A program made the position numbers and the translations under genes. 64,000 nt of DNA from Psammoneis japonica (taxonomy: Eukaryota). The notes below the pieces were generated by a model. The model was not told the DNA's origin. It did no database searches and saw only the letters and a program-made list of their open reading frames with translations. This document shows, one piece after another, positions 8,987 to 42,759 of the stretch; position 1 is the stretch's first letter; each line of letters opens with the position of its first letter. The stretch is taken from positions 555,330-619,329 of the forward strand of contig QPGO01000032.1 in assembly GCA_008632985.1 (NCBI GenBank). The letters run 5' to 3'.

Positions 8987-11100
8987 CTAGTCATCATATA
9001 AGGAATCCTTACTGCTGATCTTGAACTCCGCAATGTCATGGTTGTCGGCTTCATCTAAGGTCGCGCTTGTGAAGCCGACGAACACCTCTCGGCCCTTTGC
9101 GAACATTGAGGACAAATCTGTCCGGGCTTCGAGAATGGGATTGGAGGGCTTCCTTCTATGTTGCCGATGATCGTGGTAGACATACATGGTTGATCCATCG
9201 TAGTCTACCCACAAGCCTCCATGATCTCTGCATGACGTGCGAACTGGACGACTGTAGGTTTTCGGCAAGCTCGACGTTAGTTCCTTCATTGTTGATGACC
9301 TGGACACGAATGTGATTCATACTGTCGTCATGTTCATTTGGGGTATGATCTGAAGAAAGAGAGATCTGAGGTGAGAACATCGTATGGCAGCTGAAGAAGA
9401 TCAACAAGGAAAAAGTTTATTCCATGATGCTTGCATGAATCTAGCTCAACCACGAGTGCAGGTTTAGGTCCACTGTCGTAGACACCAAGATCACCGCCGC
9501 AACCACCAATGGCTGAAGTGCCTGCACTGTCCTGGTGCATGGTGAATGTCATTCCAGAGGCTGACCCATCGTCATCACCACACATGCGGTGCACCATTTT
9601 CATTGAGAAGAAGAAATCGTCCCAATGCATGGTCAGCGGAAGGTGCGCGGCAGATTTTTGTGAATCTCCACGGTCAGGAGTGAGACGCATTGCACAACAA
9701 TTCGGGCAAAGCTTGATCATCTTTGGACACTCAGTGTAACCATCTATATGATGTCCCTCCATTTCCAAAGCATCCGGGACCGCATCACAAGAGCCGTCCC
9801 AATCATGCTCGTAAACTCTCTGGGCCGCACAGGCACCAGGCCACGGTTCCGTGAGCGTCACATCTCCAGTGCACGTGTCGGTTTCACCATGCTCATTCTC
9901 AACAGTGAGAGCAACAGGGGTTGTGCCAATTTGATGTGGACCCCCGGGATTCTGATTTTTCCTTGTGAGAGCAAGACCGCCTTGATCGCATGACCCATTG
10001 TCAATCGACACCCAAATGCGATCACACTTGGGTGGGTTCCTGGCGTCCATGCGCACATTCTTGCAACGCGCTGCAGGTCCACACCCGGGGCAGCGACCTT
10101 CGACGTCCCGGGTGATGGTCACATCTGCAGTGCATGTGCCACTGATGCCGAACCCATCTTGGACCGTGAGAGCAACTCGAGTTGTGCCGATGCGGTACGG
10201 ACCTACAGGATCCTGCCTCTTTGAAGCAAGGTGGTGCCCTTTAGGGTCATGGGATCCGTCATCAACCGCTGCATCAAGGACAAAGCAATCCGGCAAGGTC
10301 TGCGCCGGCTTCTGCACATTCTTGCAACGCGCTGCAGGTCCATCCGTGCTGCATTGATTCTGCCAGTCCTGAGTGATTGTGACATCTGCAGCGCAATGGC
10401 TGCTCTCACCGAACTCATCTGTGATGGCAAGAGTCACACGAGTGGTGCCGATGCAGTGGGGACCCCCCGGGCTCTGACTGATTGAAGCAAGAGGGTGCCC
10501 TTTAGGGTCAAAGGACCCATCGTCAACCGGTGCTTCATGCTGAAAGCAATCTGGTGCGGTCCTCGCCCGCATCTGCACATTCTTGCAACGTGCTGCTGGG
10601 TCGTCGTTCGCACCAGGAATCTTGCAGCAGCCAGACTGGTCTTGGTTGATGATCACTCTTTTGGTGCAGGTGGAGAAAAGACCAACAGCGCTTGTTGCAG
10701 TGAGCCTCACGTAGTGAGTTCCAATTTGACAGGGACCAGGGGGGTCCTGAACTAGAGACACGTGTGTTCCGAGAGGGTCGCAGGTGCCATCATCAATGGA
10801 GACATCTCGTTTGCAGTCGGGAGGGGGGCTTGCTGTTGCCGTCACTTCCTTGCAGATCATTGCCGGCGGAGGTCGCAATGGAGAGAGGGTTTCAGGGGTG
10901 GAGTTGCCCTTGCCCGTGTCTTCATGGCATCAACAGTGGCACTCGCATGCGATTTGTGCAGTTGCGAACAGCAACGGGTCAGCGACAACGAGGTTGTGAA
11001 ATTTGCCGATTGCAGCAACAGTTGGGATGCGGCGCTTCCTCACCTTGAGCATGCGAAGCAAGGACAAGAGGGGCTACAAGGAAGAAATCAAATCGCACGA
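8987..11100 (-). pseudogene. Degraded secreted protein gene: four ~88-aa Cys-containing HYR/Ig-like repeats plus a legume (L-type) lectin domain
   Basis: Repeats PAARCKNV..VDDGS.DP..GP..IGTT.V.L. Lectin motifs TFTMHQD, VVELDS|YHTPNEHDDSMNHI (via intron 9434-9350), WVDYDG and VFVGFTSAT..NHDI. Frameshift near 9230, GC splice donor, Tyr replaced by Cys/His. Confidence 0.75.
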
Positions 11101-11399
11101 GAATCAATCGTAACCACGTCAATGCAATGGCAACTGAACTGTCGTTGTTTTTCTTTTTTTGTGACATGTGAACTCTCTCCCAGCACACTTCGACGACGCC
11201 GGATGCGTGAACCCAAACACACATGTTCAGCAACATTTGTATGCCTCAAATAAATGTGTTTTAGAAGACATCATAAAGTCACAGTCAAGGATGGATCGTT
11301 GTTTAGCGGTCGATTTTATTTGGAGCTCGTAAATGTCTAAAATAACCCGGATTTGTCGCAATGATGCGCGCGTTCGCCAAAAAAAAATCAGCGATGGGT

Positions 11400-14300
11400 C
11401 GAACTTGGGGTGTGTTTGTAAGACAACATAGAATGCACACATGATGGTTGCGACCATGTGCGATGTGTGGCTTAACGACTGTAGACATGTCTACAGCCGG
11501 TCAAACGCCAATTGTCGGCATTTCCTGGAAAGTTGTGGCTTGTCTACCGTGACAGTCCAATTTTGGCGGAAAATGGCGGTTTGTCGCATGTGACAACCGA
11601 GGCAAATATGACAATTGGCATTTGAAGGTTAACATGTGTGCGGCAGTTCCCATGAAGGTCTGACAGCCCTGATGGGGGCTGCACACACTCACATGTGTTT
11701 GGGAGTGCTCAGAGGCTTCGCAAAATGACACGGGCGAAGTACGGGGAAATTCGAAAATCACGAGCTATTTAAAAAAATAGTGCCAAACATCGATCCAGCC
11801 TTAAATGTTCAAGAACATTATGACAGATTCAGTCATTGTCAGTCACAATGACAAAAAACAGCGTCATTCACGGGTCGCAGTTTTTCCCGCTCGGTTTGGC
11901 GGTGCTTCGCCTGCTGCACAGTGCGTGCCTCTCAATCTCGCAAGGGATTTTAGAATGCATGATAAATGTTCAAGAACATTGCGTGTTGACACAGTCATTC
12001 AAAGTCACAATGACACAAAACGTGGTGTCGTTTGTGGGTCGCGGTTTTTTCCCCACTCTGCCTGCCAGCAGCAGTCTCACACAACACACGAAAAACCAGC
12101 TCACCACCATCATCAGCAGTGGCAGCAGTGCAGCACATTGCCCCAACTGTCGCCACTGTTGCTGGTGTTCCCAGGTTTTGCACTGCCACTGTGTGGCGTT
12201 GTCTGCACATGGCCACAAAAAGCTGGCACAGTGATCTGCTGGATGTGCTCCAGCCGTGCATGAACACGCATGCCAAAAACATGAGATTGCTTTGTTGAGT
12301 GAAAAACAATGTGCCAAGTCATCTGCAAATGTTTGGACATGCCAACAAGACACACCGAAGTGCACCAAAACAAGCAGCTGCTTTTCATTTTCCACCGCAC
12401 TCTTGTTGTGCCAACTGCATCACAAAACAAAGGCAAACCTGCTGTTCATTGCAGGCCTGTGATGCAACAATCAGACAGCTTTTTTGTGCTTTGGTGCACA
12501 ATGAGTGTGTTTTCAAACTGTGGCAGCAATGAAAGTTCTCATGTTGCATGACATGTGCAAACAACTCCATGTGGGTGAAATTCTGCATGGACTGACACAT
12601 GTGCTTTTTGCACAAGTTGCTGTGGCAGCATGCGGTCCTTTGCAATGGCTTGTTTTGACTTTGGCTGCAAAAACAGTGCTGGTTGATGACTGGTTGATGA
12701 CACGGAGGAGCAGATGATGCAACATGCGCTGCGCAGAAAATGTTGAGTTGCAGCACATTTTTTGCTGAGACTTGGACCTGTTGCATTCAAAGGATTTTGT
12801 GCAGGTGTTGATGCCCACCTGAAAGTTGACACACAAGGTCACCAAAACAGATCTGTGCAGCACGACAGAAACCACCACACAAAAGCCAGTTTTTAGATGC
12901 TGTGGATTCAAAGGGTGGGGCAAAATGGCCCAAGGAAAGGGTGAAAAACTTGTGCGCTTGAAAGTCAATGAAATGAACACAAGTCCCAAGCTGCTGGGCC
13001 AAAAACAAGAAAAATTGCACACAGAGACTGAGCAAAATGTGGTGGTCCTGATGGAGGCATTTTTGTTGCCAAAAGGTGGAAAGCAGACAATGCAGCCCTC
13101 TGTGTGGTCATGTTGTTCATTGCAACAATGTGCGCCACTTTGGGAGCTTGCTTCTCATTGAGAAAACAGCTCCCATGGAGCATGGGCAAGGTGCTCAATT
13201 TGTTTGATGCCAGAGTTAAAATGAACAGCTGTGCAGGCCAGATCTAGCTCCAGGTGAAAGAAGTCCATCTGCAGCATGCGCTGTTGTGTGCATTTTTTGG
13301 TGTGTGTGTGTCCCCCCACTAAAATGTTGTTGCACATTGAATCATGCGTCAATCATGGGTTCGTGCAAAGGACAGATCAATCACAAAGAGTTGATTGGAT
13401 GTCGAAAATTGCAAATCCAATTGCTTGATGATGTTGACATCTTGTGTGTCAATGGCAATTGCATCCAGACAATCTGTTGTCATGATCACATTGTCTGAAA
13501 GGCCTTTTGCATCATGCAGGAGCAGCACAGAAGCTCCAAGTCTTTGAGAGCTTGTTCGGAGAAACCCAAAATGATTGTGCAAAATCCAGTCTTGCAATTC
13601 TCACTTTTTGCACATTGCTCTGCTTTTGTTTGCACTTGTTCTTCCAGCACAGCACACATTGCGCATGACTTCCCACACAGATTTCAGTGCCAGGAATTTT
13701 TTGATCACCTGCAAGCCAGAGCACATGGTGGTGCAATCATCATCTCTGTCACAGTGGCTGAACAAAAGCGTGCTTTTCATGCCCACGGCTGTGCACCAAG
13801 AATGTGACTCAATCTCAAAAAGAAAAAATGTCAGGTCACTCAAAGCCTTTTTTGTGATGCCCAAAAGCAGTGCTGGCTTCCATGCCCACTGCAGGAGTGC
13901 ACACAATGCAGCACACCACTGTGTTTGCACTGTTGCAAAGCTCTTCATTTTGCAACTGCTTTGCAAACAATGTCATTTGCCGCTGTGTTTCAATGCACAT
14001 GATGTTGCCAATGTGCTTCTATGAAGAACAGTCATCATTGCCTGCTTGTTGTCATGCAATTTTTACAACACAAGTGACGAGCAATCCTTTGAGTGTCATT
14101 TTTCTTGGTTTCAACTGTCATTTTTTTTGCACTGTCTGCTCCCACCAGTTGGCTTTGGCTTTGCTGCCAGGCATGCTGAGTGGTCCAAACTGCTCTTTTG
14201 CCACTTCACATCTGTCCCAGGCTGTCATTGGTCTTCTGCAGCAGTTCTGCTGGTTCCATGAGGGCTGCTGCAAGCAGAAGCTGGAGCCATGCTTGTTGTC

Positions 14301-17300
14301 AGCATTGGAGATCAGGGTGCACTTTCCCACATTGTTTGTTGTCCTTGGGCATCCAATGGGGTCATCCAACCACAACACAAAATGACAAAGGTTTGTGGGT
14401 TTTGTCCATCTCTTGCAGCTTGTTGCTTCTTGCTGGGGTTTTTGACTCACTGCTCCACTTGAGAGCAGCCCAAAGCACTGCCAGCTGTGGGTGCTGAGAT
14501 GACGCGCCAACACACCTCAGTGGACTGGACAGGAAGCTCAGCACTCAACCATTGATGGGACAGCACAGCACGGCAGCTTCTGAGCTGCAGTCTAGAACAA
14601 GTCTCAAGCCAAGCCCCAAGTCAAGCTCAAGTCCAAGTTTCTGTTTTGAAGTCCAACTTCATTTGCACATCATGGCATGTTTGCACTTTGAAGAACTGCT
14701 GCTTTTCTGTCATGTGCTTGGGCAAAAACCATCAAAAGATTGTTTCACTGCTCACACTCAGTGTGCAGCACTGGCTGATTGGAGCTGCCAGACAACCCAC
14801 ACCACACTGCTCATCCATGTGTTGTCTTTGGTTGCTGACTTGGTCTGTTCTCTGGAGTGCAGTCATTGCACAGCACAAGCAAAAATCAGTGCACTTGCTG
14901 TGTTGTTGGTTGTGTCGCAGCTGCCTGTGGTTTGCAGCTGCACATTTGGCAATTGGCGCTGGCTGGCTGGAGCTGCCAGAGAAACTGCCACTGCTCATCC
15001 ATGCACTGTCTTCAGCTGCTGTTTTGGTCTGTTCTCCAGGGTGCAGTCCTCATGATGCAGCACAGGCGCTCAACTGACAAAACAGACAAAAACTGATGCA
15101 CTTGCCAAAGCTGCAGGCAGCACCACAGTCAAAGTGGGCCCTTCCATGATGGAGCCCACCACTCCAGCAGGGAATGTGCTTGTCATCAGCAAGCAAATTT
15201 CCAAGCAAGCGCAAGTGTTTTTAGAGCCAGCGAGTGCTTGTTGTTCAAGTCAAAGCCCACCCCTTGGCTTTTGATGCCATGTTTGGTTGACTGTCCCCCT
15301 CTTCATCATCACCCTGGTCAGGTGCAAGCTTGCTGCCATGGCTCTTTGGGTGCAACCCTGCCATTGCATCTGCTCCAGGGTCTGTTCACACTCTGCCCAA
15401 TTGCCTCTCCAGCGTGTGTGTTTGGCAATGTTCGAATGCTTTGTTTCCTTCCATGCACACCACACCAGCCACATGTGTCACCACTTGTGCTGCTTCCTCC
15501 ACCCCTCTCACTTGCCCTTCTTGTGTTGACTGACTCTTTGCACATTTTGTGGCTTTTCACAGTGTGGCATTTCCTGTCCCCACCCAGAGAGTGTGTTGTC
15601 ATGGTCTGTGTGCTTCTGTGCCAAGCTCCAATGCACCAGCACAACAAAATCCCACCAAGTCAGGGAAAATGTGCTGTCAATGGGGGAGTCATTCAAAAAG
15701 GTCTCAACTGCTGTGGTCAATTTTTAACAATGCCTTTGATTGGACAACATTTCAGCTGATTTTCCAAGAAGTTGACTTTCAAGCATGGATGCAGGACAAA
15801 CAGATGGACAGCTGGTGTTGGCACTGGTCTGCACAATTTTTGTGTGATGTCTCTCAGGGCCAAAAGAATGACTCCCATTGTTCAAGCACCAAAAGATCTG
15901 CTGAGAAACCCTTGGGCAGTCATCAGCACACCAACAGACCAAGAAGCAGACAAGAAAGCACTGCGGCATGACCTGCAACCTCAAGATGATGAAGTTTTCA
16001 TTTTTTTTGGATTGACAGTCTTGCCACCTGTCTCAAAATGATGCCATCCAGTGGCAACCCTGAAGCCATTGTTTTTGTGCAGAATCCTGCAGAACACCAC
16101 ATGAGCAAAATGGCTTTTGCAATTTTTTTCATGCAGAAAAGCCATGTTGTGGTTCCTTGTGCTCAGTGCTGGGTGGCCTTGACCAAGACATGCTGGCTGC
16201 ACTGCTGCTCTGCTGATGCTGCTGCCAGATGACTCACATTGTCAACAATTGCAGCTCATCTTGGGTTGTTTGATTTCTCATCATGTGTTGACTGTGTTTC
16301 TGCTTGCATCAAAATCAAACTCCCCTCAGCTTGCCTTGCACACTCTGCACTTGTTCTCACTCCTCATGGAGCCACACAAAAATGACACACGCGTGCTTCT
16401 CAAGAAGTGATCTCCATGTGACTCCAGCAGTTTTGCACGGCAACCATGTTGTTTGTAACTTGACAAAGAACAAGACCTTCATGGGGGACATTTGGCAACC
16501 TGGGGGATCTTTTCATTTGCTGTGTCACTCAAAAAGGTTTGTGCTGCTGGCTTGCGCAGCAGTCGTTGTGCTGCAAGTGCATCACTCAGAACAAGGAGGG
16601 CTCTGGCAACAACTCAGCCACAGCTTTCTTGCACCAGCCAACTCAAATGTGGAGAGGGCTTGAAGGCTGCAGGAAGGTTCAGGGTTGTTTTAGGGGGGAT
16701 TTTCAGCAAACTGGGGAGCACCCAGGGGAGGGAACAAGGGCCAATCCATTGACAGAAGCAGCTCACAACCCATCACATCTCCAAACAAAACACACACACC
16801 CCTGAACCCCCCCCTGAAACCCCAAGTGTTTGATCACCAGCTGCAAGGTGAGGCAACAAACATGATGGCAACAACAGCAAACCCTGGAGAGATGAGCAGG
16901 GAAAAGATGCCAGTGCAACAGCAAATGATGGGCTTGGGGACCAGCACTGTCCCAGCAAAGACATCTCATGCTTTGGCAAGTGGCTTGCTGCAATGCTGTG
17001 ATGTTGTGCACATGGTGGCAAAGGGGCAGCTGTTTGGAAGACAAGTGGAAGCAAGAGAGCCTTGCCCAATGATGAAATGGAGAGCTGGAGGGCAGTGGGT
17101 GGAGGCAGCTGTTGTTTTTGCAAGATGGCGGCAAGCCCTCACTCTCTCTTGTGTCTTTTTTATTTTTTACATTCTTGCATTGCTTGTTTTCTCATGCACT
17201 GTGTGTTTTGACCCCCCTGTCACCACAACAAGGCTAAAATGCTGAGTGCAAATGCCCAGCTGTTGTTGGATGCTTGCAGTGTTTCTTCTTCAAGGATCAC

Positions 17301-17980
17301 AAGGGAGGCAAGCTGCCCTCTTGCCTCCAGCATTCCCCCAGCCACTTTTTGTCGGTGTGGGCCAGCCAGCTGTCTGCCCCAAATGAAGCAGCTGTTTTGT
17401 GCTGGGCAACCCTGCAACAGGAGCTGCTTTTCTGTGATGGACAGAGCAACAGCATCAGATGGTCTGTCCTTTGCTGAGAGAGACCGCAGCTTGAAAGCTG
17501 TCTTGCTGGCTGTTGCTGCCTGCTCTTTTTGCTGTCTCAAAACAAAAGCAAAGGCCCCACAAGGCCAACAAGGCCAACAAGAGCCAGCACTCTCCCCACT
17601 TGCACAGACCATGTGTGGCCAAACTGTTTTGGCAGCTGAGATGACTTTGTCAGCCGAGAAGGCTCTCTGACAATCAGAGAGTTGTGCCCCGGCTTGTCAG
17701 CCAAAGTGCAGGAGCTCGCCCCATGGCACAGCATGAGACTGGACAGAAGAAGTTGTCTTAAGTTGTTCATCATGCATCAAGAAGGAAGCACAAGGAGTGA
17801 ACAACAGCATGACAGGCTCCAGCCAAGCTGCCAGAGTCTGAAAGCATGTGCTTTTTATTGTTTGTTTTGTTCTGCAGTGCTGCGAACTCCAAACAGTTTT
17901 AGTGAGCGAGAGGCAAGAATGACGTGTGTGAAAGATCGCGTGTCTGTCCTGCCGTCAGAAACAGTGACTCATTGACATCG
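11400..17980. repeat. TpA- and CpG-erased relic repeat domain A (decayed transposon DNA, family not recognisable)
   Basis: Almost no TA or CG over ~6 kb, with strong TG/CA excess. ~160-bp-spaced direct repeats at 11803 and 11964. Normal composition returns near 17990. Confidence 0.75.
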
Positions 17981-18183
17981 AGGCGAGAAAGATACCTGTA
18001 GACTTAGTACCAGACGTTACAGGACACGCAAAACAACGTGGTTTTACCACATTGTGGTCGCTTTCTTCTTTCTTGTGGTGTCACTATTGCCGACGTTGTT
18101 GCTAATCTCGGTGTTTGTTGCCTTTGCTCTGTGTCTCATCCAAAAAAGAAGAGGCAACCCTGCCTGCATTTATGACTTTCAAC

Positions 18184-19479
18184 ATGGAGCGAGTACTTGC
18201 TCTTTCTCTCATATTAGCTACGCAATGTGCTGCCTTTATGAGCAACCCTGTAGCTTCAACACGCCATGCCATGTCAGTGATGGCTGAAGCTTCTGATAAT
18301 ACCAGTGAGAGCGATCGTCGTAACTTCATCGGCCAAGTGTTGGCTGCACCGGCTGTTGCTGCAGCAGTTCCGCTTCTCACCACGTCACAACCGGCACACG
18401 CCGAGGTCTACCTGGATCCAGCCATGTACGGCGATCAGGAAAACCGAAACTCGGCCGTCAACTCACTGAAGGAAGCGGTTCGCAGAGCCATTCTGGAAGA
18501 CCCCAATTTGGCTCCTGCCTTTTATCAACTGGCCATTCTCGATGGACTTTCCTACGATGTCAATACCAAGCAGTATGGACCCGACGGAAGAGTGGTTTCG
18601 GCTGTACTGTCGTCCAAGGACAGCAGTTCCTACATGCAAAAGTTGCAAGCCGCCTGTAAGGTCTTGATTGCGTCCACGATTAGTCTCAAAAAGCTAACTT
18701 CCATCACTGTCGCGGATGCGGTTGCACTTGGTGGAGCTGAAGCTATTGAATCCATTGGTGGTCCAGTGCTTTCGGTTCAGTTGGGCCGAATGGATGCTCC
18801 CAAAGGTTCGCCAGTGAGTAATCTGAATCTGAACGTTTTGTCGGGCGAAGCTCCAGGCTCTGAAGTTTCCCAGGCATTTAAAAGTGCCGGCTTGACAGAG
18901 CGGGAAATGACAGCCTTGCTCGGCGGTTTGTTGACGCTCAGCTTGGTGAAGACCAATATGAAACCGGGGGAATACAAAAAGACCCGTGGAAAGTACCGTG
19001 AACGAGGAAAGATTGGACGCATGAGTGAATTCAAGAAACTAACTGATGACGATATTGCGGAGATGGAAGAGTACGAAGAGTCGGAAGATAACGACTGGTA
19101 CATTGCCGAGTCGTTTGGGACAAGGGACGAAGCCTTTGGTGCCAAAGCGGCCGAGGGCATTTCAGAACAAAATTTCAACAAGTATCTCAAGCAAATGAGT
19201 GAACTTATTGCCAACAGCAAGAAAAAGAAGGCCTCTGACGGCGGTGCCAGTCTCTCTGACTTTGGATGGATTGGAGCGCTCTTGTTGAATCCGGATAATC
19301 CAACGACGCAGGCGTGGTTGACCAAGTATGGAGGATCATATTTGAACTACAACAAGGATCTTGCAGTTGCCTACAATGCCATTACACAGCTCGGGGCAGA
19401 GTATACAGGGGGCAAGTATGAGAGTCTACTCAAGAACAAGCCCAGAAAGACGTTGAACGATGACTTGGATTTGTTCTAG
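18184..19479 (+). CDS. Thylakoid-lumen ascorbate-peroxidase-like protein (TL29/APX4-like, heme peroxidase fold)
   Basis: Signal peptide ending CAA|F, Tat motif DRRNF and AHA cleavage site. ITVADAVALGGAEAIESIGGP..LGRMD and FKSAGLTEREMTALLG are peroxidase-fold motifs. Confidence 0.82.
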   Translation: MERVLALSLILATQCAAFMSNPVASTRHAMSVMAEASDNTSESDRRNFIGQVLAAPAVAAAVPLLTTSQPAHAEVYLDPAMYGDQENRNSAVNSLKEAVRRAILEDPNLAPAFYQLAILDGLSYDVNTKQYGPDGRVVSAVLSSKDSSSYMQKLQAACKVLIASTISLKKLTSITVADAVALGGAEAIESIGGPVLSVQLGRMDAPKGSPVSNLNLNVLSGEAPGSEVSQAFKSAGLTEREMTALLGGLLTLSLVKTNMKPGEYKKTRGKYRERGKIGRMSEFKKLTDDDIAEMEEYEESEDNDWYIAESFGTRDEAFGAKAAEGISEQNFNKYLKQMSELIANSKKKKASDGGASLSDFGWIGALLLNPDNPTTQAWLTKYGGSYLNYNKDLAVAYNAITQLGAEYTGGKYESLLKNKPRKTLNDDLDLF

Positions 19480-20580
19480 AGAGAAACAAGCTTTTATTTA
19501 GGGCAACGTGCTAGCGATATATGTGTAGCTCTAGCTAGAGTGTGTAGCCCTACTAACTGTACTGGGAGACGCGCGGTGTCATGTCTCCGAGTACTCTGCT
19601 TGAATGACAACGGGTAGCTACTGTATTGGAACTAGCTACTATCCCGGTTCTAGAGAGAGAGGAAGAGTTGCCTACACCAAAATCTACTATTTCAGCCATG
19701 AATTTCTAGATCGAAGGCTGAGTTGTTGAAATACAGAGCTGAACCACTTGCTACAGAGAGCACCAAAGCACTGATTAGCAGTTAAGGCTGTGACAAAGAT
19801 GTTCAATGTGGAAAGCGTCTGATTTCAAAGGATCAAGCCTCTTGTCGCGTGCCCATGTCGCCGGGTTCCATGTCTGACTGCAGTTGAGAAGAAAGAAAGA
19901 ATGGATCACGTGAGAAAAGCAGCGACCACACGTATTATCACACACAAGACATCTACATGAAAAAGCAAAACTCTCGTCGGGATACAAAGTTAGATCATCG
20001 ACTGCGCATGCCCAATTTTGGCGCGTACCGTCTAGCATTAGAGGTGTCAGATAAATTGTTTGCATAAAAATGACTCGTCATTCGAGAGGCTTCCAATTCA
20101 TTAGAAATACAGAGAGTGAGGTTAGCTCGTACCTATTCAGTATTGTGAATACCGAAAACTCCTCCTCCTGAAAATGTAGCAATGGACAAACAAAGAAAAC
20201 AGGAGAATCGTGAGGGTTGCGCACCAAAACTAAAAAGCGAGATTAGTTTCAATTCGATCGCTCTCGTGTTGCATGTTCAGAATCGTGTTAGTTAGTTAGT
20301 CCCATGATTGTTATCACGCACTATAGAGCCCAAGAGGCTGGACAACAATTTATTGTAAATCCCTTTTGGATCCCAACGTAATCGTTTTCCCAATACTCTT
20401 TGACTCGAGTACAATCAAAAGACCGTCGTGATTGGTAAAAAGAGGGAAATCATCATTACAAAAAGACAAAAGCTCACATGTAGACGAGACATTGAGTCTG
20501 GAACATACCTTAATGCGCAATTTCCATACACAGTTTCACTTTGCTGCTGGCGTTCTCATAAGAACACATCTGTACAAAAT

Positions 20581-24960: not shown

Positions 24961-27189
24961 TCTGCACAAGCCCACGATCCGTGGTATTGACGTCACTCAA
25001 ATAAGCTCCAATAGCGACATGTCGCAGTGCTTTTTTGAGAGTTAGAGTTTCGTAGGAGAAAACGTTGGGGTGTTATTTGTCTGGGTATTGACTCTAGGCC
25101 AGCGACTCGAAGAACAAGCAGCATAAATACAATCAGTCTTGAAAGTAGTGTGTCCGGAACAATTATGTCGTGGTTGAGAACCCCGAGACCCGAGACTCCA
25201 CAAATGCTAAATCGACACCATGGTTGTGTCATAAGTTGCATCCTTGTGTAATACTATTGGGTTATTGACAATGTGAATCACAAGACATGAGCAACAACGG
25301 AATAATGCCAAAGGCTCAATAAGCTAGAGTACTTACCTTCTCCACATATCTCACCTCAGGAGCATGTAGACCGGAGTCCCACAACAGGTATATGTCTTAT
25401 GCAAACGTTTCCTTCGAGAGACCACTAAGAGTGCCGTAGACGATTCGCCAGTGAGCAGCGAATGCCGATAGAACGGTGCGGCGAATCGGTGACAGACAGG
25501 AAGAAGGCTCTTATTGTATTGTACCGTGAACTTGGAATGTTTGACTCGTGCAGCCTTCCGCGAGTGTTTTTGACGGCTACCGTGAAATGTGATTACAGCC
25601 TCGTCTGCCTCATATTGTCTACACTTTGCGTCTTTCTCTGATAATCATTGCTCAAAAAGGCGATTGTGTGTACCGCATGGCATGGCGAACGGTAGGTTGT
25701 GCGTCATGTTCATGTTTCATGTGATGATATTGCGTTGATGGCTGTTGATGGCGGCAGTTTTTTGCGTTTTGGAGGCCTACGCAACGCGTACGTAGGAATT
25801 AGTAATCACTTCGAACGTACCAACTTCCAACGACTGTTCTACATACGAAAATCTTGGTATTGACTCTGATAGAGTACACAAAAATGATAGTGATTGAGAA
25901 ATTTAGCAACGGTCACGACACACAAACAAAATCTCTCACTTTTTTCTTTCGCGCTCGTTTTTGACACAACTGCGTCGTCTCGCACGATGCTGTTGTTGTT
26001 CGCCAAGCCCGAAGCCGTGATCGTCGAGGACTTGTTTGGCATTCCACAACCAATTTTGCTTGATGGCGTGTTGTCTCAATCGGCGGCGCAGGTGTTGCCA
26101 GTTAAGTCCGGAGGTCGGAGCAAATCGAGTGCGTGTCTCCGCCATGTCACTCCTGTCTCCTGTCCGTCAGCTGTCCCGATTTTATCAACCAGTAAAGTCC
26201 CATCGACTGACCCTTCCACTCAGCCAGCTGATGCGACGACGAACCCTTTGACAGAGCCCTCGGCATTTCCCACTGCAATGCCAAGTGCAGCACACAGTGA
26301 CGTGCCATCAAAAGCACCATCAGCAGAGCCGAGCGACATTTGGAAGCACTTCGTGCTGCGACGATGAACGTGAACGATGCATCGTAAGATGCACAAGAAA
26401 AGAAAAAAAGATCAAACCAAAGATGCACTTCGATGGGATGCACCATTGCCAGGAGCCACTGGACCGATCCATTTCTTTTCTTGTCATTTTGCGACATCTG
26501 TTCTCGCAAGTTGTTTTCCGGCTGCACTTTTCCCACTCCATCCCCGTCACCCGTTGGCATGTTTCAAGTTCTCTGAAACACGCTTTGAACCTTTACAACA
26601 GAAGTAGAAAGACTAAAAGTGCCACACAGCAATCTTCATTCGCGTGTGAGTCATTCCGCACGCAGGTCAATGGACTGCGATGGCGGTCGCAGCGCTTGCG
26701 ATGTCGTTCCAAGCTTTTGTGCATCATTTCCGTTTTTGCACCACATTGCTCTCGTCCCTTCAGATGGGGTCCACGCTGGGGTGTTTGTTGTGGCATGCCC
26801 CAATTTGGGCTTGTCGTCCATGCCGCATGTGCTGGACTGTTTCGGCGTTTGTCACCTGCAGTGGTTTTCTCACAGATTCGTCGCATTCACTTGTTGTTTG
26901 TGAGTTGCAACAGAAGAATGAAAATTCTAAAGCACAGGTTTGTGGCTAGAATGCTCTCTGCCAGCAGAGAGAAACAAAAGTTTCGAAATTCGTGACTCCA
27001 CTTGTCTGACTGTGCCAAGCTCCGTTTGTCCTCTCTCTGAGGTGAAGAATCACATGGCTGGACACAATGTTGAATGCCTTCTTCAGCTGAACAAGTCCCC
27101 AACCGAAATTCTCGAGCTTGTCTTTGAAGCTGGCCTTGAGCGCATCGATTGATGCACGCATCCCAGGGTTGAGTGGAGGCTGTGAGACG

Positions 27190-27465
27190 TGACAGAAATT
27201 GAAGGCAAATGGCAAGAATTCAAACAACAACTCCTTGCTGCTGTCTAAATGGCAGATGAGTCTCCGCTCAGAGACCGTTGCAGGAGCCGAAAGACGTGTA
27301 AGTCGGCACAATTGGGCCACTGTTGTTGTTCTTGTGAGCCTTGTGGCTCGAAAGCAAACTGCGTCGCACGTGAACGCGCGGAGCTAAAGCACACAAAACT
27401 GTGCGCGGCAAACTAAACAGCGCGCGACATTTCGCGTGCACCCAAATCCTGTTCAAATCCTGTCA
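27190..27465 (-). repeat. 3' LTR (276 bp)
   Basis: tgacagaaattgaagg...caaatcctgtca, preceded by TSD agacg. Confidence 0.96.
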
Positions 27466-27560
27466 CTCCCCAGTTTGCTTGAGGAGCCACAGAAACAGAT
27501 TCAACTTCGGATGGAATGAAGTTCCAGAACATGAGGGGGCAGAGAAGGTCCCAGATTTGG

Positions 27561-28125
27561 GAAAGTCGCAGCCCAGATGGAACTCAATGGGTCCGGCACC
27601 CTTGAGCTTGAACTTGTGCTTTTCCGTGAGAGCATCGACGAAAGATTGAGGGTCCTTCATGGCAATGGCGAGGTCATCCACATAAACAGCAATGCATTCA
27701 CAGTGGTCGCCATTCCTGCGCATCCAAATGTCGGGTTCGGCGCGGCAGGGGAAGAAGCCTTCAGCTCGCAGGCAGTCGGCGAAGCGCTCGTGCCAGCGGA
27801 GACCGGAGCTGCGCAGTCCATGCAGGGCCTTGTGGATGACGAGGATGTGTCCTTCGAGTTTGCCAAATTCAGGTCCGGCCACAATGTAGAGCTTCTCCTT
27901 GGTGGTGGCTTCAAGGCAGGCATTGCCAATGTCGGTGGCCCATGTCTCCAACTCGTTGAGTTCGGCCAGGAAAATCATCAGCCGAAGGCCACGGAGGGAG
28001 ACTGCTCCGGAGTGGACACTGTCGATGGGTGCGTCCGTGAGGTGCCCATCGGCTACGAGTCGTGCCTTGTGGCAACCGTCGTGCTTCACGTCGTGCACCA
28101 GGTGCACTCGGATCTTCTTGTGTCC
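27561..28125 (-). repeat. Duplicated RT segment (copy of ~29342-29906)
   Basis: Second copy of KKIRV..KARLVADG..YVDD..FHLGCDF. Confidence 0.93.
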
Positions 28126-28126
28126 C

Positions 28127-28345
28127 TGACAGCAGATGAGTCTCCGCTCAGAGACCGTTGCAGGAGCCGAAAGACGTGCAAGTCGGTGCAATCGGGCTGC
28201 TGTTGTCATTCTTGTGAGCCTTGTGGCTCGAAAGCAAACTGCATCGCGCGCGAACGCGCGGAACTGAAGCACACAAAACTGTGCGCTGTGAACTGAACAG
28301 CGCGCGACATTTCGCGCGCACCCAAATCCTGTTCAAATCCTGTCA
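28127..28345 (-). repeat. Internal third LTR with a ~57-bp deletion
   Basis: tgaca|gcagatgagtctcc...tcctgtca, adjacent to the PPT. Confidence 0.93.
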
Positions 28346-28349
28346 CTCC

Positions 28350-30347
28350 CCAGTTTGCTTGAGGAGCCACAGAAATAGATTCGACTTCGGATGGAATGAA
28401 GTTCCAGAACATGAGGGGGCGGAGAAGGTCCCAGGTTTGGGAGCAACCCCAATGCTTGCTGAGAATGTCAGCAGGGTTGCGGGAGCCTTCGATGAAGTGG
28501 AGCTCAAGGTGACCAGAGGCAATTGCCTCACGCACACGGTGGAACGACAGTGCGGTGTGTCGCTTGTGTAACTTGGAGTGCGGGATGGTGGCACTGTCTA
28601 CAACCGACTTGTTGTCACCGAACATGCAACTGACATTGCGGATCGGGACGCCAAGGCAGTGCAGGGTGATGCGCAGGTCGATGATCTGCTCGACACAAGT
28701 CCTTGCGGCAACAAATTCAGACCCGTGGGTTGCAGTCTCCATGGTGGCTTGCTTCTTGGAGAACCAATCAGCCGGGAATTTGTTGAGGAAGTGGAGCATT
28801 CCCATGACAGAGCGTCCGGTGAGCATGCAATGGCACAAGTTTGCATCGACGCAGTGGGTGGCAGTGACGAACTTGCCAAGGGGCGGTGGAGCGTCCTTTG
28901 GGATCATCTCTTCTGCTTCGCCGCACACGGAATGCATCCATTCACAGGCCGGAGCAGGGAGATCCGAGTGGTCGGGCTCTTCCGTGTGAACACGGAGAGC
29001 GCCGTGTCGCATCTTGGAGAGGTGCCCACAGACGTGTTTGGCATGATCCAAGTGGCCTTGACGGGGCGCAGCTTGGAAGCTAGAGAGTGACATGACGGCC
29101 ATGGCAATGTCAACTCGACCAAGGGACACTGCCCATTGGAGTGAACCAACAAGAGACTGGAACTTGTGAATGCCATTGGGCCCCAGCAGTTTGGAAGTGT
29201 CCAGCTCGGGGTGGTCACCCTTCTCCAGAGGTGACAGGGCGTTGGTGGTGGGTTTCTCCCCAAACAGTCAGGTGCAGCTGTCGACCATGCGCTCGATGCA
29301 CTTGCACGGAGACAGGCACAAGGTGCCGTCAGGATCCCGGGAAAAGTCGCAGCCCAGATGGAACTCAATGGGTCCGGTGCCCTTGAGCTTGAACTTGTGC
29401 TTTTCCGTGAGAGTGTCGACAAAAGATTGAGGGTCCTTCACAGCAATGGCGAGGTCATCCACATAAATGGCAATGTGTTCACCGTGGTTGCCGTTCCTGC
29501 GCATCCAAATGTTGGGTTTGGCGCGGCAGGGGAAGAAGCCTTCAGCTCGCAGGCAGTCGGTGAAGTGTTTGTGCCAGCGGAGACTGGAGCTGCGCAGTCC
29601 ATGCAGGGCCTTGTGGATGACAAGGATGTGTCCTTCGAGTTTGCCAAATTCGGGTCTGGCCACAATGTAGAGCTTCTCCTTGGTGGTGGCTTCAAGGCAG
29701 GCATTGCCAATGTTGGTGGCCCATGTCTCCAACTCGTTGAGTTCGGCCAGGAAAATCATCAGCCGAAGGCCACGGAGGGAGACTGCTCCGGAGCAGACAC
29801 TGTCGATGGGTGCATCCGTGAGGTGCCCATCGGCTGCGAGTCGTGCCTTGTGGCGACCGTCGTGTTTCACATCGCACACCAGGTTCACTCGGATCTTCTT
29901 GTGTCCTGCAGGAGGAGTGGAAGACTCGAAGGGCCCGCAGTCATGGAAGACTTCGTATTCCTCGAGTTGGTCCATCTCGAGATTAGTTGCGTCTCCCCAT
30001 TTGCGGTTGCCGTTGTGTTCGTCTAGTGACATGGCGTGTTTGCAGTTCCGGGGAACTTCGTGTCCACACTTGCAGCGAGGTGCAGTGCGGAAGGAGCGAA
30101 GCTTGGCTTGGTTGGCCATGCGAAATGGCTTCTTCTGGTGCCTCGCGATGGTGCGGAACCGCTTCCAGCCATCAGTGTCGAGAAGTCCATTCTCTCGTGC
30201 ATAGATGGCGCAGGTGATGGGGTCGTCCTTGGCGATGATGGCAAGAGGCTCGGACGTGATCTCCCCACTTTCCCATTCAAGCATGATGTTGTAGCTTGAG
30301 CCTTTCCAGGTTGGGTCTTGAGGCTTCAGAGGTCCTTCGTGTGACAC
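28350..30347 (-). pseudogene. pol: Copia reverse transcriptase and RNase H (mutated)
   Basis: KARLAADG, KALHGLRSS, IYVDD, FSKKQAT.ETATHGSEFVAA, GDNKSV and NPADILSK. Confidence 0.95.
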
Positions 30348-30353
30348 GATGCG

Positions 30354-31802
30354 TCAAAATTTCCAAACAGCAGTGTCTTCGTCTTCTTGCTCAATGTGAT
30401 TCATGATGTCGTTGCAGGCAAGGACTTCCTTGTGTTCGTCGTTGTTGACAGAGCAGACAAACTTGGTGAGCTCGGGATTGCCGTTCACTTTCCATTCATG
30501 GTCTTCGACGGCCTTGACGATGCGAGCTCTGTGGCGTTGTCCGTCCTCTTGTGGCTGCATGAGGAAGGTGCGTCCGATGATGTCTTGCGGGTCGAAAACT
30601 GGCATCTTGGGTGTCCTGATCTCCCCATCAGGAGAATCGACGGGGTTGTCGTCATGGCGAGATTTGATGATGGGTTCAGGTGGCTCCCCATCAGGAGGAT
30701 CAAGACGCAGGTTTCGAACGGCAGGATCGGTGGCAGTGGATCGTACGTTGGACCGGTGGAGGATCTTCTGAGTCTCGTCAGAGAGAATCTTGAAGGTCAT
30801 CTGGTGGCCGACGTGCTCAGCAATGCCAACAAAGCATCCACGCAACTCACGGGATTCGGACAGCCAATCGGAGTCATCGAGGTGGAAGCACACGGGTTCC
30901 CACCAGTGAAAGCGAAGCAATGGGCTGATGTCCGGGGTGGAGCCAGTGAGAGTCTCGAGGGGCGTGCACCAGTGGAGACGTGGGGACGCTGTGTGGTTGA
31001 GCATGAAGCACACGTGCATGAGCGCCAGCAGCCATGTGTGGGCAGGCGAACCGAAACGATCCATGACAGTGTTCGCCATGCGCTTCACGGTCTGGTGTCG
31101 ACACTCGGCAAAGTTTTGGTGTTGCTGGTGAGGCTCACTTTGCCAGCTGGAGATGAAGAGGGCTCGTAGGATCCCGAGCACCTTGTTGCTGATCTCAACT
31201 TGAGCACGGTCGCCAATGAGTTTGGATGGGGCACCACGCTCACGGATCTGATCCTCGAGTGTGTTGACAAACTCTTTGTCCGTCTTGGTGCCGCAGACGT
31301 CAGTGACGGCAGACTCGGTGCCAACAAACAGTTGGGCGCTGGTGCAACCAGAGTCGATGGCCGGGGTGTCGGCATGAACGGTGTCAGTGGCGACAGGCTC
31401 GTTGCGGCGGTGCACATTAAGGGCGGGGTTGGGTGATTTGCAGGCCTTCCTAAGGTGTGTGCCAGCGGGCATGCGGGCGCACTGCGTGGTGCAGTCAAAA
31501 GTGCGACGGACCGCATCGGCAGGTGGGAAGCCAAAACAAGGCCGAAGAGACTCGAAGGGGGGGTCCTTGGGCTGCACAGTGCGCTCCGGGGGCGGAACGT
31601 TGTCGTCCTTAGGGTCAATCGCGTGTGGATGACACTCGTAGAACACGTCGTCGTTTGGAATGAGGTGATCATCGAGGGCGGACGCGTGATCGGCAGACAA
31701 GGAAGCGGACATGATGGTCTTGTTGACAACGACACGATGACGGCAGTTGCCGCATTCGTCAAATGGGTTGGCAGTGGGATCGTCCTGCAGGTCAGAGATC
31801 AC
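30354..31802 (-). pseudogene. pol: Copia integrase (mutated)
   Basis: VATDT..DRAQVEIS..SEPHQQHQNFAE DDE core and TPDISPLLRFHWWEPV. Ends at a TGA that probably derives from CGA. Confidence 0.92.
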
Positions 31803-33673
31803 GTCGCACCACTGGTCGCGACGACGGGACCACGCTGGGTCTCAATGATGGCGCCAGCAGTGACAACAGGGATGTCTGCCAATTGATGGTCGTCAATGCC
31901 CTGAACGTCGACTTGGTGAGAGGTGTGTGCAATGACGCAAACGTCGTCGCCAGCAATGCCGCCGTTGGCCCCACGATCGACCAGAGCACCAGCGCGTGTG
32001 GAGCGATGAGCAGAGGCAGAGCAAATGACATTGTGGCCACCAACGCGGCGGCAAGTGCGGCCGTTGAGTTCCATGTCATCGGCAGGAGCTGGCGGAGTAG
32101 AGGGAGCGGCGGATGGCCCCGGTCGACTGGCGTTGGGGGCTTGGTTAGGAGACAACAGACGTTGCAGATCACCGGGTGGCAGTGGCTTGCGCTTGGTGAG
32201 GTGCGCCAGGATGGGATTGTCCGAAGTGGCACCCACATTTGGAGCGGGGTCACCAGAGTCAGCAGGAGTCGTGTTGGACAAGTTGACATCACCATCACTC
32301 CCAAGGCGTTGGTCGTGAAGGTTGGCCGTAATGGACTCATGGCAGTTGCTGGCTCGCGGGTTGCGGGGAGGCGGACGAGAATGCTCAAGGATGATCGCCT
32401 TGGAGGAATGGGGCAACGAATCCCAAATCCGTTGGTGGTCGGGAGGGAGACGTTTCCATTGGTCACCGGCGAGGCTGGGACCACGGGTGCAGGCAGCATT
32501 GGCCTGAAGGGCGTCAATGTCGCTGTCAATGTCGCAGAACACATCGTCGGATGGTTCCTCGGAGCAGACGTCGTGTGCGTGTGTGGCACGTCGGGGAGCT
32601 CGAGGTGTCGTCTTGGGTTGAAACGTGCTGTCGCATTGAGCCGCCGCGGAGAGGAGCAAGCCACAGCATTGATCACATGTGAGGCTCTTGCCACTCTGCA
32701 TGCGATGCTGATCAGCTTGGTTCTTGACAGCACGGAGTTCCTCGACAGGGTGTGCGGCATTCTCGAGCATGACGCGCTTCTGTCCTTCAGAGAAGTGGTC
32801 ACTGGCCGGGATGAGTGCCTCGCACTTGTGCAACTGATCTTGCCAATGAAGGATGAACCCATGGGTCGGACCTTTCCAAGTGCCATCACCAAGACGTGCG
32901 GTGGCAAGGTGCGTGAGCAAGGTGGAGGACTCGACAGATGCGCAGGTGGAGGCGAGCGCACACTCAGACAAGGCGCGGCAGATGGTCTGGGCGTCAGAAG
33001 ACCCCACATTTTCGCGAATGAGAGCCTTGCCCTTGTCGGTGAGAAGGATGCATTCGAAGATGGCGAACACGTGCTTTTGCTGTTCAGCAAAGAGCAGTTT
33101 GTCTTCGGGGCTGGTCGGTTTGTACGATGAGTCTAGAGTGCACTCGACGTCTTGGGCATGGGCTTGTGCCACAAGTGAGGTGTGCCAAGTGTGCCACTGC
33201 TTGTCAGATTTGAGAGCCGTGAAAGCAGTGGGGTCACGCTTGATGCCTCGCTTGAAGTCTCGCACCGGGTCGCGTGCCTTGGTTGGGTTGGTGACATGCG
33301 GAGGTGCAAGGGGTGAGCTGCCGATGGACACAGAAGACATGCAGTCGGGGCTGAGGCGGCAGGCAAGGAACTCGTCATGCGTGAACAACGAGGAGTCATT
33401 GGCAACGTCAAGACCTTCGTGTGCTTTGACAATGCACAGACCAGTTGGAGCTGCCAACATGTTCTTATGACCGCGGGGCAAAGGGATCACATTAGTGCCG
33501 TTGTCGCACTCAAGCGAGTCGATTTGGGACGGTGTTAACGTGAACAGTTCTTGACACGAGTCCGTGCCGTCTTGGGTCAAAGCCAAACGAAGAGGGCTCC
33601 CAGCACCTTGGGCAAGCACGGTTCCAACAACGTGCTCGAAACCATCGGTTTGTTGCTGACGAGTGAGAACCAT
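31799..33673 (-). pseudogene. gag: Copia gag and aspartic protease (mutated)
   Basis: DFKRGIKRDP and LVDRGANGG (protease). Frameshift or deletion near 31805. Confidence 0.88.
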
Positions 33674-42655: not shown

Positions 42656-42759
42656 AATCATAGATTTGCGACTAATGTAAAATCCACTGAGTTGCCTGGT
42701 GTAATGCGGCATTCAGTTACCATGAGTAGTGGTTTTTGTCTGCGGGTATACAACAACAA

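Follow-up and report, generated by a model that had tools for sequence, protein, structure and literature searches.

The closest known case to the locus described here is the TpA hypermutation of Bigelowiella natans, reported in one 2026 preprint (Mettrop et al., bioRxiv 10.64898/2026.01.13.699255). According to that preprint, the hypermutation is restricted to TpA and affects integrated giant-virus and virophage DNA, where new mutations arise at a rate ~1000-fold above that of the rest of the genome. Its authors suggest an ADAT-like adenine deaminase, and they describe TpA-poor, CpA- and TpG-rich clusters of the B. natans genome in which reverse-transcriptase and DDE domains are overrepresented. 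The main text of the preprint has no mention of CpG, and none of the words trinucleotide, flanking, or context. A literature search found, among the matches listed, no report of TpA hypermutation of transposable elements in a diatom.

Decay of methylated CpG is known from the silenced transposons of vertebrates and plants. TadA and ADAT2-ADAT3, whose natural substrate is RNA, act on tRNA A34, which follows an invariant U33 (the context is U-A-C-G in bacterial tRNA-Arg). Early versions of the TadA-derived adenine base editors favored Y-A-C. RIP changes C to T, chiefly at CpA, which creates TpA and lowers GC, and it needs duplication and a sexual phase. RIP is described from Neurospora and other ascomycetes (PMC7296669).

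We compared these systems with a 64,000-nucleotide stretch of Psammoneis japonica DNA (contig QPGO01000032.1, positions 555,330 to 619,329), called the window here, in which all coordinates are given. As the preprint describes for B. natans, the changes are transitions at TpA that yield TpG or CpA by strand, and they are kept to foreign or integrated DNA while neighboring genes are normal. However, B. natans is a rhizarian, in a different supergroup from diatoms. Its viral regions keep many TA (3.3% and 9.2% of dinucleotides), whereas the diatom domain is saturated (0.28 TA per 100 bp). Instead of viral DNA, the diatom targets are a copia retrotransposon, small inverted-repeat elements, and anonymous silent DNA, and a Pfam search of 104 + 71 ORFs found no viral domains in the window. 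The diatom locus resembles RIP in that DNA-level, dinucleotide-specific transitions have ruined mobile DNA in place, in sharp-edged tracts. The direction is opposite, however, because TpA is destroyed (o/e 0.04) and CpA/TpG is made (o/e 1.9). RIP acts only on duplicated sequence; most of the diatom domain has single-copy depth at 80% likeness or more, a threshold under which converted copies would drop. The CG loss resembles methylated-CpG decay in turning CG into TG or CA on both strands of silent repeat DNA, without a flank rule and down to an o/e of ~0.1, but here it always comes with, and after, TA loss.

A domain almost free of TA and CG

The focal TA-free domain spans 11964-17992. It keeps 17 TA and 58 CG, whereas ~200 to 260 TA and ~320 CG are expected at the rates of neighboring DNA. 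With rates taken from the window background, the counts in 11985-17990 have Poisson probabilities of 1e-64 (TA) and 3e-74 (CG). A preliminary description had reported ~6 kb nearly free of both dinucleotides, starting at 11400 and returning sharply to normal at ~17990. The loss and the sharp right edge were borne out, with the TA run resuming at 17993 and CG back ~110 bp earlier, at 17883. However, the start was off by ~565 bp; 11400-11963 belongs to a high-copy element and is normal. Normally spaced TA ends at 11963, and the left edge for CG lies at ~12043 by change-point analysis. The domain and its borders contain the following features, with copy number given as summed contig depth (single copy, ~60).

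11336-11963: high-copy element, unmutated, adjoining the left edge (depth up to 2644; TA and CG normal)
11963-12052, plus strand: converted partial copy of 11802-11888, making up the first 90 bp of the focal domain (transition-blind alignment)
12043-17882: CG-poor core within the focal domain (CG counts, change-point)
13347-13600: very high-copy short repeat, with this copy inside the focal domain (depth 11528, ~190x)
14373-14583, plus strand: copia-leader homologue (89% in purine/pyrimidine code to 33997-33797 on the minus strand)
14753-15054, plus strand: old local tandem duplication (transversions, 0.053 per site; 9 TG/CA-discordant columns)
18106-19479, plus strand: unaffected host gene of the heme peroxidase family (50 to 60% identity to diatom proteins)

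In 1-kb bins across 12001-18000, TA o/e was 0.01 to 0.13, CG o/e was 0.08 to 0.30, and TG and CA o/e were 1.65 to 2.18, compared to background bins with TA o/e of 0.42 to 0.75 and CG o/e mostly of 0.8 to 1.1. Over the whole domain TG and CA were approximately doubled, and their counts (717 and 705, respectively) mean that both strands were hit alike. YpR steps numbered 24.9 per 100 bp, against 24.0 to 24.7 in six large background blocks, and this conserved total fits conversion of TA and CG into TG/CA. Runs of TG versus CA were not strand coordinated beyond the background-block range (z = -1.8 in the domain; range, -1.94 to +1.14). CG was more frequent in 11985-13400 than in 13401-17880 (1.48 versus 0.65 per 100 bp), and tandem structure was limited to one 184-bp duplication. 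The peroxidase gene starts ~110 to 120 bp beyond the right edge, where TA is normal. The focal domain is best explained as old, putatively silent DNA, derived from repeats and largely non-coding, that separates two diatom genes of divergent orientation.

Four further stretches of the 64-kb window have lost both dinucleotides. They are listed here with the other elements of the window.

26000-36400: TA-erased, CG-keeping domain (TA o/e 0.11, CG o/e 0.84, GC 0.55)
27190-28126, minus strand: second, partial copia copy of the same family (LTR and reverse-transcriptase fragment)
28128-34888, minus strand: copia-type LTR retrotransposon (LTRs 28128-28345 and 34613-34888; RVT_2 domain)
~42750-44191: short both-erased domain (composition, change-point)
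46365-46756: unmutated inverted-repeat element of 392 bp within erased DNA, the "before" copy (26-nt terminal repeats; 28 TA in 46381-46739)
46757-53975: second large both-erased domain (TA o/e 0.05, CG o/e 0.12)
51640-51920: the "after" copy, related to the 46365-46756 element and fully converted (transition-blind alignment)
58129-58871: both-erased fragment, homologous to 47787-48409
58872-59784: AT-rich unmutated element of 913 bp with perfect 21-nt terminal inverted repeats, interrupting an old erased element
59785-61684: both-erased fragment, homologous to 48603-49198

Change-point analysis placed the edges of TA-poor and CG-poor tracts 27 to 227 bp apart at 10 of 10 edges. A rule by which CG-poor tracts would invariably lie inside TA-poor ones was dropped, being true at only 7 of the 10. 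When the window was divided into 128 segments of 500 bp, the 63 segments normal for both TA and CG all lay outside erased tracts, and every CG-low segment was also TA-low, save 2 at boundaries. CG loss was seen only where TA was already gone. Within the TA-low segments CG o/e was bimodal (25 below 0.2, 6 at 0.2 to 0.6, and 18 at 0.6 or more).

Direction, flanking bases, and order of loss

In this DNA we observed the direction of change, its restriction to particular dinucleotides, its occurrence on both strands, a flank effect, an order of loss, and signs of recent activity. Both TA and CG changed to TG or CA, and the direction was one-way. We found unconverted relatives by transition-blind alignment in purine/pyrimidine code. 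Between the element at 46365-46756 and its relative at 51640-51920, 16 of 18 TA columns had become TG or CA (CA, 10; TG, 6; kept, 1; CG, 1), and the CG columns had become TG (11) or CA (7), with 1 kept. No TG/CA column of the before/after pairs had reverted (0/36). Of the CG columns in the copia-leader copy, 15/17 were TG or CA in the focal domain, and at 4 of 6 majority differences in the 13347-13600 repeat, the other copies had CG where the window copy had TG or CA. These results agree with the preliminary description, in which TA and CG both funnel into TG/CA. It had also considered simple satellites or single-copy expressed sequence with no TA- or CG-bearing homologues, but relatives carrying TA and CG were found. 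Alignment in purine/pyrimidine code recovers lost homologies and provides a clock undisturbed by hypermutation.

TA conversion favored 5'-T-A-pyrimidine, and CG was lost without a flank effect. Residual TA (n = 95) had a 5' A in 5% and a 3' T in 6% of cases, compared to 25% and 25% in the background. Only 0 to 0.38 R-TA-Y sites were left per kb (background, 11.8), versus 1.7 to 2.4 Y-TA-R sites (background, 6.0). With mixed flanks, TA events gave YTGY/RCAR outcomes 15 times and went the other way twice (P = 0.002), whereas CG events were split 18 to 23 (P = 0.53). The Tyr codons of copia, a comparison that is marginal alone (Fisher P = 0.054), had become Cys 10 times and His twice after Y, and Cys 7 times and His 9 times after R. 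A flank rule at TA but none at CG argues for two processes. The T-A-Y rule for TA conversion is a new detail.

The copia domain has lost TA and mostly kept CG, as first described. Its polyprotein (33673 to 28383) is 39 to 65% identical to an 1859-aa homologue. At 36 conserved Tyr columns we found Cys 17 times, His 11 times, Tyr 4 times, and other residues 4 times, and CG reversal accounted for 26/108 conserved-column differences. Three comparisons of young copia copies, covering 942 sites, had only 3 transversions (0.4%). Between young copia copies, transitions fell within YpR columns in 85/98 cases, many as CA facing TG. Therefore, these changes arose after insertion and on both strands. The TA columns were TA/TA (4), TA/mutated (4), or discordant (13), and the CG columns were CG/CG (43) or CG/mutated (25). 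Calculated from these counts, per-copy loss was ~82% for TA and ~22% for CG, a ratio of ~7:1, and TA is indeed lost faster than CG, as had been proposed. Two observations on CG weigh against the two-process reading. Conserved Arg columns of copia had become His 8 times and Cys twice, an asymmetry, and residual CG in erased DNA was R-CG-Y (~51) ~4x as often as Y-CG-R (~13), an excess not accounted for by flank-free CG loss.

The preliminary description had arranged the elements as an age series, and this is partly supported. Fresh inserts are intact, young elements are TA-poor with most of their CG, and long-resident DNA has neither. Three young inserts in or beside erased DNA are unmutated (11336-11963, 46365-46756, and 58872-59784), and transversions rise from 3/942 in young copia to 0.043 to 0.066 per site in fully erased pairs, a distance that for dispersed copies also counts divergence predating insertion. 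However, the order compares a single young copia family with about three groups of old repeats, all from this window. There are also signs that TA/CG conversion was recently active in the domain. A same-locus contig, possibly from the window's own sample, had 9 differences in 13559-17169 and none in 17170-20000, and 8 of 13 single-copy differences in the domain exchanged TA or CG with TG or CA, both counts being among the 40 listed of 227 differences.

Spurious ORFs and protein searches

The focal domain carries a stack of Cys/His-rich ORFs because stop codons are rarer there and Cys and His codons are commoner, in line with the earlier suggestion that the ORFs are spurious products of stop loss. 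Six-frame stop codons were at 2.5% versus 3.7%, Cys was at 7.1% versus 3.8%, His was at 5.2% versus 3.6%, and Tyr was at 0.05% versus 2.4%. ORFs of at least 100 aa numbered 4.7 per kb, against 2.0 to 3.1. Pfam searches of 104 ORFs of at least 130 aa across the window (E ≤ 0.01) and of 71 ORFs of at least 55 aa in the focal domain (E ≤ 0.5) found no transposon or viral families in the domain, where weak matches (E, 0.012 to 0.47) were to unrelated families. With full-length copia homologues, tblastn matched only 27556-33673 among the rows listed for two of six queries.

We also used a transition-tolerant protein search with log-odds scoring, for which six shuffled-query maxima (48.3 to 59.1) served as the null. 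This search, of the TG/CA-ambiguous kind proposed in the preliminary description, gave no score above the null for the focal domain (best, 47.7) or for the other erased domains (≤53.6). The idea that erasure makes elements unrecognizable did not hold for erasure alone: after in silico conversion to the end state, a copia coding region kept scores of 829 to 1553, against a null of ≤59. We therefore rejected a decayed copia pol gene as the origin of the focal domain. Such a gene was never present or was lost long ago.

Proposed mechanism and its implications

Old silent repeat-derived DNA has probably been brought near compositional equilibrium by two in-place DNA transition processes, a faster one at TA and a slower one at CG. 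The faster process would turn TpA into TpG or CpA and is read most simply as adenine deamination in 5'-T-A-Y-3' on either strand. With this target, the flanking bases would set which strand is hit, and R-TA-Y sites would go first and Y-TA-R sites last. The other process, ~3 to 7x slower, would turn CpG into TpG or CpA independently of flanks, as for methylated-CpG decay in silenced DNA. We infer the enzyme, the methylation, and the target mark of the two processes. Diatoms methylate transposons, and loss of DNMT5a in Phaeodactylum depletes methylation (PMC9998398). The putative 5'-T-A-pyrimidine target resembles the anticodon-loop context of TadA/ADAT2-ADAT3, a resemblance that serves as a lead.

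A single enzyme with both activities, such as an ADAT2-like deaminase that attacks A as well as C in DNA, might account for both losses if TA were a better substrate than CG, and methylation would be unneeded. The nearly co-extensive tracts (edges 27 to 227 bp apart, 10/10) are consistent with this, as is the CG loss already quick in young copia (25 CG/mutated columns versus 3 transversions in 942 sites), and amphioxus ADAT2 edits A and C in DNA, as cited in the B. natans preprint (10.64898/2026.01.13.699255). However, we think it unlikely because the flank rule is unlike at the two dinucleotides (TA, 15 versus 2; CG, 18 versus 23) and because 210/211 changes in the larger viral region of the B. 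natans bursts were A to G or T to C, with no C-to-T part in the preprint's account. The bimodal CG o/e of TA-low segments (25 low, 6 intermediate, and 18 high) might instead reflect two fixed categories rather than ages, with all silenced DNA TA-hypermutated, only a methylated subset losing CG, and copia unmethylated. This is improbable, since CG loss is under way in copia (26/108 conserved-column differences; 25/68 CG columns differing between young copies), CG is intermediate within part of the focal domain (1.48 versus 0.65 per 100 bp), and transversion ages differ in the direction expected from an age series.

Two other readings have very little probability. ADARs favor a 5' U, according to the discussion in the B. 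natans preprint (10.64898/2026.01.13.699255), and A-to-I editing of retrotransposon RNA before reverse transcription could have been copied into the genome. Such editing would affect the transcript strand only and precede integration, but TG and CA are raised equally, copies have come to differ since insertion, with CA in one facing TG in another, a DNA-type inverted-repeat element was converted too, and TA sites differ between same-locus contigs. It is just as hard to believe that the domain is satellite or compositionally constrained sequence in which TA and CG were never present. Its mostly single-copy depth (at least 80% likeness) and the failure of any protein family to match it would fit, but TA- and CG-carrying relatives exist, the before/after pairs contradict this reading, the YpR total is conserved, and the only tandem structure is the 184-bp duplication.

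Returning to the two-process reading, a wider version of it is tentative. A still-active diatom DNA adenine deaminase of the TadA/ADAT type may recognize an anticodon-loop-like 5'-T-A-Y and mark DNA by residence time in silent chromatin, not by repetition. In combination with CpG decay, this enzyme would leave all long-resident non-genic DNA without TA and CG. Because a rhizarian has the same TpA signature, this could be an ancient stramenopile-alveolate-rhizarian defense, a functional mirror of fungal RIP. The T-A-Y rule and the lack of a rule at CG set concrete, testable limits on the enzyme, and a DNA adenine deaminase would also be of interest to base-editing research. Since repeats escape detection at the nucleotide level and spurious Cys/His-rich ORFs arise, repeat annotation and gene prediction would be biased in such genomes. 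The long-term outcome of such a system would be a composition with TA o/e of ~0.04 and CG o/e of ~0.1. If the two-process reading is true, diatoms would have a mutational genome defense whose kind is so far known from a single report, on an unrelated alga, and such a defense might be widespread among eukaryotes.

Extent and composition of the erased domain

In 1-kb bins, normal DNA of the window has observed/expected (o/e) ratios of 0.42-0.75 for TA and ~0.8-1.1 for CG. From 26001 to 37000, around the copia LTR retrotransposon (28128-34888, minus strand), TA is erased (o/e 0.05-0.19), while CG o/e is 0.65-1.0 and GC at most 0.60. Therefore, copia has indeed lost TA and mostly kept CG, as the preliminary description had it. 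Both dinucleotides are erased in 12001-18000 (the focal domain) and in four more stretches (~42750-44191, 46757-53975, 58129-58871, and 59785-61684).

Normally spaced TA ends at 11963 and resumes as a run at 17993, with 17 TA in between. The right edge had been placed correctly, but the left edge is 11964 rather than 11400, because 11400-11963 is normal DNA. Within 11985-17990 there are 17 TA and 58 CG, against ~204-258 and 324 expected from window background rates (Poisson P = 1e-64 for TA and 3e-74 for CG), and domain o/e values are 0.04 (TA), 0.16 (CG), 1.87 (TG), and 1.92 (CA). The reported near-absence of TA and CG is a real feature. Its neighbours are as follows.

9337-10929, minus strand: 531-aa ORF with an HYR domain (E=2e-9), left of the focal domain
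18106-19479: haem-peroxidase-family ORF with homologues, just right of the focal domain

With the haem-peroxidase ORF on its right and the minus-strand HYR ORF on its left, the domain fills the gap between two divergent genes. The best relatives of the haem-peroxidase ORF are 50-60% identical and include named diatom proteins of Seminavis, Odontella, and Ditylum. The host-like HYR ORF is made up of 261-bp tandem repeats and, especially in 9800-10900, is TA-depleted (o/e 0.14) while partly retaining CG (0.68). All 12 listed differences between this region and a same-place contig, which may be misregistered within the repeats, are interconversions among TA, CG, TG, and CA, including two adjacent TG-to-CA pairs.

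Stops account for 2.5% of six-frame codons in the focal domain (TGA 274, TAA 17, and TAG 11 of 12008), compared with 3.7% in the genic DNA alongside. Cys (7.1% versus 3.8%) and His (5.2% versus 3.6%) are raised and Tyr almost vanishes (0.05% versus 2.4%), and there are 4.7 ORFs of at least 100 aa per kb versus 2.0-3.1. The ORFs are spurious, Cys/His-rich products of TAA/TAG loss, as had been suggested.

Conversion of TA and CG to TG and CA

Per 100 bp, TA, CG, TG, and CA together number 24.9 in the focal domain and 24.6 in the copia one; six large background blocks have 24.0-24.7. This unchanged sum is the prediction of conversion inside the pyrimidine-purine class. Because all suspected changes are transitions, we recoded the window as purines and pyrimidines before BLAST. 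This revealed homologies that were absent from nucleotide-level repeat finding or only 70-75% there, of which the following pair is the clearest.

46365-46756: unmutated 392-bp element with 26-nt terminal inverted repeats and 28 TA in 46381-46739
51640-51920: relative of the 392-bp element, inside erased DNA

From the first to the second, TA columns became CA (10), TG (6), TA (1), and CG (1), and CG columns became TG (11), CA (7), and CG (1). None of 36 TG/CA columns became TA or CG, so TG/CA is the shared end product, as proposed. Recoded as purines and pyrimidines, focal positions 14373-14583 match 89% of the copia leader (33997-33797, minus strand), and 15 of the leader's 17 CG columns appear there as TG or CA. 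Positions 13347-13600 belong to a family at ~190-fold depth in public-run contigs; at four of six majority differences the family has CG and the focal copy TG/CA. The possibility that the domain has no TA/CG-bearing homologues is therefore contradicted by the 392-bp element, the copia leader, and this family.

Order, rate, and sequence context of loss

Among 128 windows of 500 bp, 25 were low in both dinucleotides and 18 in TA only; just two were CG-low with TA at or above 0.35, both across domain edges. Transversions, a clock blind to hypermutation, numbered 3 in 942 sites between young copia copies (three comparisons between two copies), whereas fully erased pairs had 0.043-0.066 per site and a focal tandem duplication 0.053. 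The same three young comparisons gave TA/TA 4, TA/mutated 4, TG-against-CA 13, CG/CG 43, and CG/mutated 25. Assuming independent hits and even strand choice, each young copy has lost ~82% of its TA and 22% of its CG, a rate ratio near 7 from small counts, so TA conversion is the faster, as had been claimed. At the copia CG rate (again from small counts), a fall in CG o/e from ~0.9 to 0.14 takes ~7 times the young copies' age. The ~2-3% transversions per pair that this predicts fall short of the observed 4-7%, and those observed values set an upper limit to age.

All five erased stretches have TA o/e of 0.02-0.08 and CG o/e of 0.08-0.16, common end values consistent with a plateau. Should ordinary back-transitions balance the loss at this level, TA would be lost at least 85 times faster than it is remade, and CG at least 24 times faster. 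CG density is intermediate in 11985-13400 (1.48 per 100 bp versus 0.65 in 13401-17880). The proposed age series is partly supported, in that TA is lost before and faster than CG and fully erased pairs carry more transversions; against it, independent elements are few and the CG distribution is bimodal. Overall, the earlier interpretation was largely right.

Three unmutated elements, the 392-bp element and two others, lie in or against erased DNA.

58872-59784: untouched 913-bp AT-rich element with perfect 21-nt terminal inverted repeats, splitting an old erased element
11336-11963: untouched high-copy element making the left edge of the focal domain

These inserts indicate that state tracks the residence time of each piece, not position alone. 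The 913-bp element has GC ~0.37 and TGAT flanking both sides. Because their termini are alike, it and the 392-bp element may be members of a single, perhaps currently mobile, DNA-transposon superfamily. Next to the latter, 45800-46364 is TA-depleted and retains CG. After purine/pyrimidine recoding it aligns with the copia LTR (46031-46366 with 27222-27521, score 57; 46031-46106 with 34645-34720, score 52), and it probably represents a solo LTR or LTR fragment at the same early stage as copia. Within 27190-29907, a partial second copia copy (LTR and reverse-transcriptase fragment) adjoins the full element's left LTR, which misses its first 58 bp, and 896 bp (28444-29339) are present in one copia copy only.

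The 95 TA that remain in depleted DNA are preceded by A in 5% and followed by T in 6% of cases, versus 25% each in the background. R-TA-Y is almost gone (0-0.38 per kb versus 11.8), and Y-TA-R survives best (1.7-2.4 versus 6.0). In before/after and duplicate pairs, TA sites with a single favourable flank gave Y-TG-Y or R-CA-R in 15 cases and the opposite in 2 (p=0.002). Counted likewise, CG sites split 18 versus 23 (p=0.53), i.e., no flank effect. A further test, largely independent of these counts, drew on 693 columns conserved among 24 full-length copia polyprotein homologues. At the 36 conserved Tyr columns the window copia has 17 Cys, 11 His, 4 Tyr, and 4 other residues; the Cys:His outcome was 10:2 for Tyr codons after a pyrimidine and 7:9 for those after a purine (Fisher p=0.054, binomial p=0.039). 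These data fit an adenine preferentially attacked in 5'-T-A-Y-3', on either strand offering that context, and the difference between TA and CG favours two processes over one. Bacterial TadA acts in the context U33-A34-C35, and early adenine base editors preferred Y-A-C.

Among 108 copia differences at conserved columns, one TA reversal explains 35, one CG reversal 26, and either 62; by the 26, copia is already losing CG. At conserved Arg columns (28383-33673, minus strand), His 8 and Cys 2 indicate CG-to-CA over CG-to-TG on the coding strand, an asymmetry not seen in the pair-based counts. Residual CG in erased DNA (11985-17990, 43000-43950, 46800-53600, 58200-58800, and 60000-61400) is ~4 times more often R-CG-Y than Y-CG-R (~51 versus 13 sites), whereas the background is equal (12.6 versus 13.0 per kb). 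CpG might be newly created by off-target deamination of A at C-A-Y.

A same-locus contig from a public run shows 9 differences from the window across 13559-17169 and is identical to it across 17170-20000 (P ~0.035 under uniformity). Among 40 of 227 differences listed, 13 lie in the domain at single-copy depth: 8 between TA/CG and TG/CA (4 of TA type, 4 of CG type) and 5 others. Because only these 40 are listed and the run may come from the window's own sample, the differences hint at allelic or strain polymorphism but give no rate.

Origin of the domain and related systems

Neither the 71 focal-domain ORFs of at least 55 aa nor those of at least 130 aa (104 such ORFs searched window-wide) matched a transposon or viral protein family. 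We also aligned a 1859-aa copia polyprotein locally to DNA, using codon log-odds over possible ancestors with TG/CA read as TA or CG. The focal domain scored 47.7 and other erased domains at most 53.6, against 48.3-59.1 for six shuffled queries. For comparison, we simulated end-state erasure of the window's own copia coding sequence, adding 3-6% transversions, 5-10% other transitions, and indels. This control still scored 829-1294 with an ordinary matrix and 996-1553 with the tolerant one in 6/6 trials. Erasure by itself thus does not conceal a pol gene, contrary to the view that it makes old elements unrecognisable. Decayed pol of this copia family is ruled out, the focal score being at shuffled-query level. 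At a likeness of at least 80% in public-run contigs, the domain is mostly at single-copy depth (~60), with these repeated islands.

12338-13339: depth ~97
13340-13673: depth 11528
14342-14675: depth 169
15678-16011: depth 121

Converted copies are too diverged for the 80% threshold, so single-copy depth is no proof of single-copy origin. We infer that the domain is a mosaic in which old repeat pieces, most of them non-coding, are possibly joined by some swept-in intergenic DNA.

Phaeodactylum transposons are reported to be methylated through DNMT5a (PMC9998398), and by analogy methyl-CpG decay is plausible here. Fungal RIP runs in the chemically opposite direction. Our literature search found no diatom report of TpA-directed hypermutation. 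For mutation-accumulation lines of Bigelowiella natans, the preprint of Mettrop et al. (bioRxiv 10.64898/2026.01.13.699255) places 231 of 302 nuclear mutations within two integrated viral regions. A-to-G or T-to-C changes made up 210/211 in the larger and 20/20 in the smaller, the GC-biased changes there were all at TpA, and the genome also has TpA-poor, CpA- and TpG-rich clusters. The main text is silent on CpG and on flanking-base context, whereas here there are both CG loss and a T-A-Y rule. It proposes an ADAT-type candidate, for which the likeness of T-A-Y to the TadA and base-editor contexts offers a lead rather than a test. The feature represents a diatom version of a mutational process for which this preprint is the single known source.
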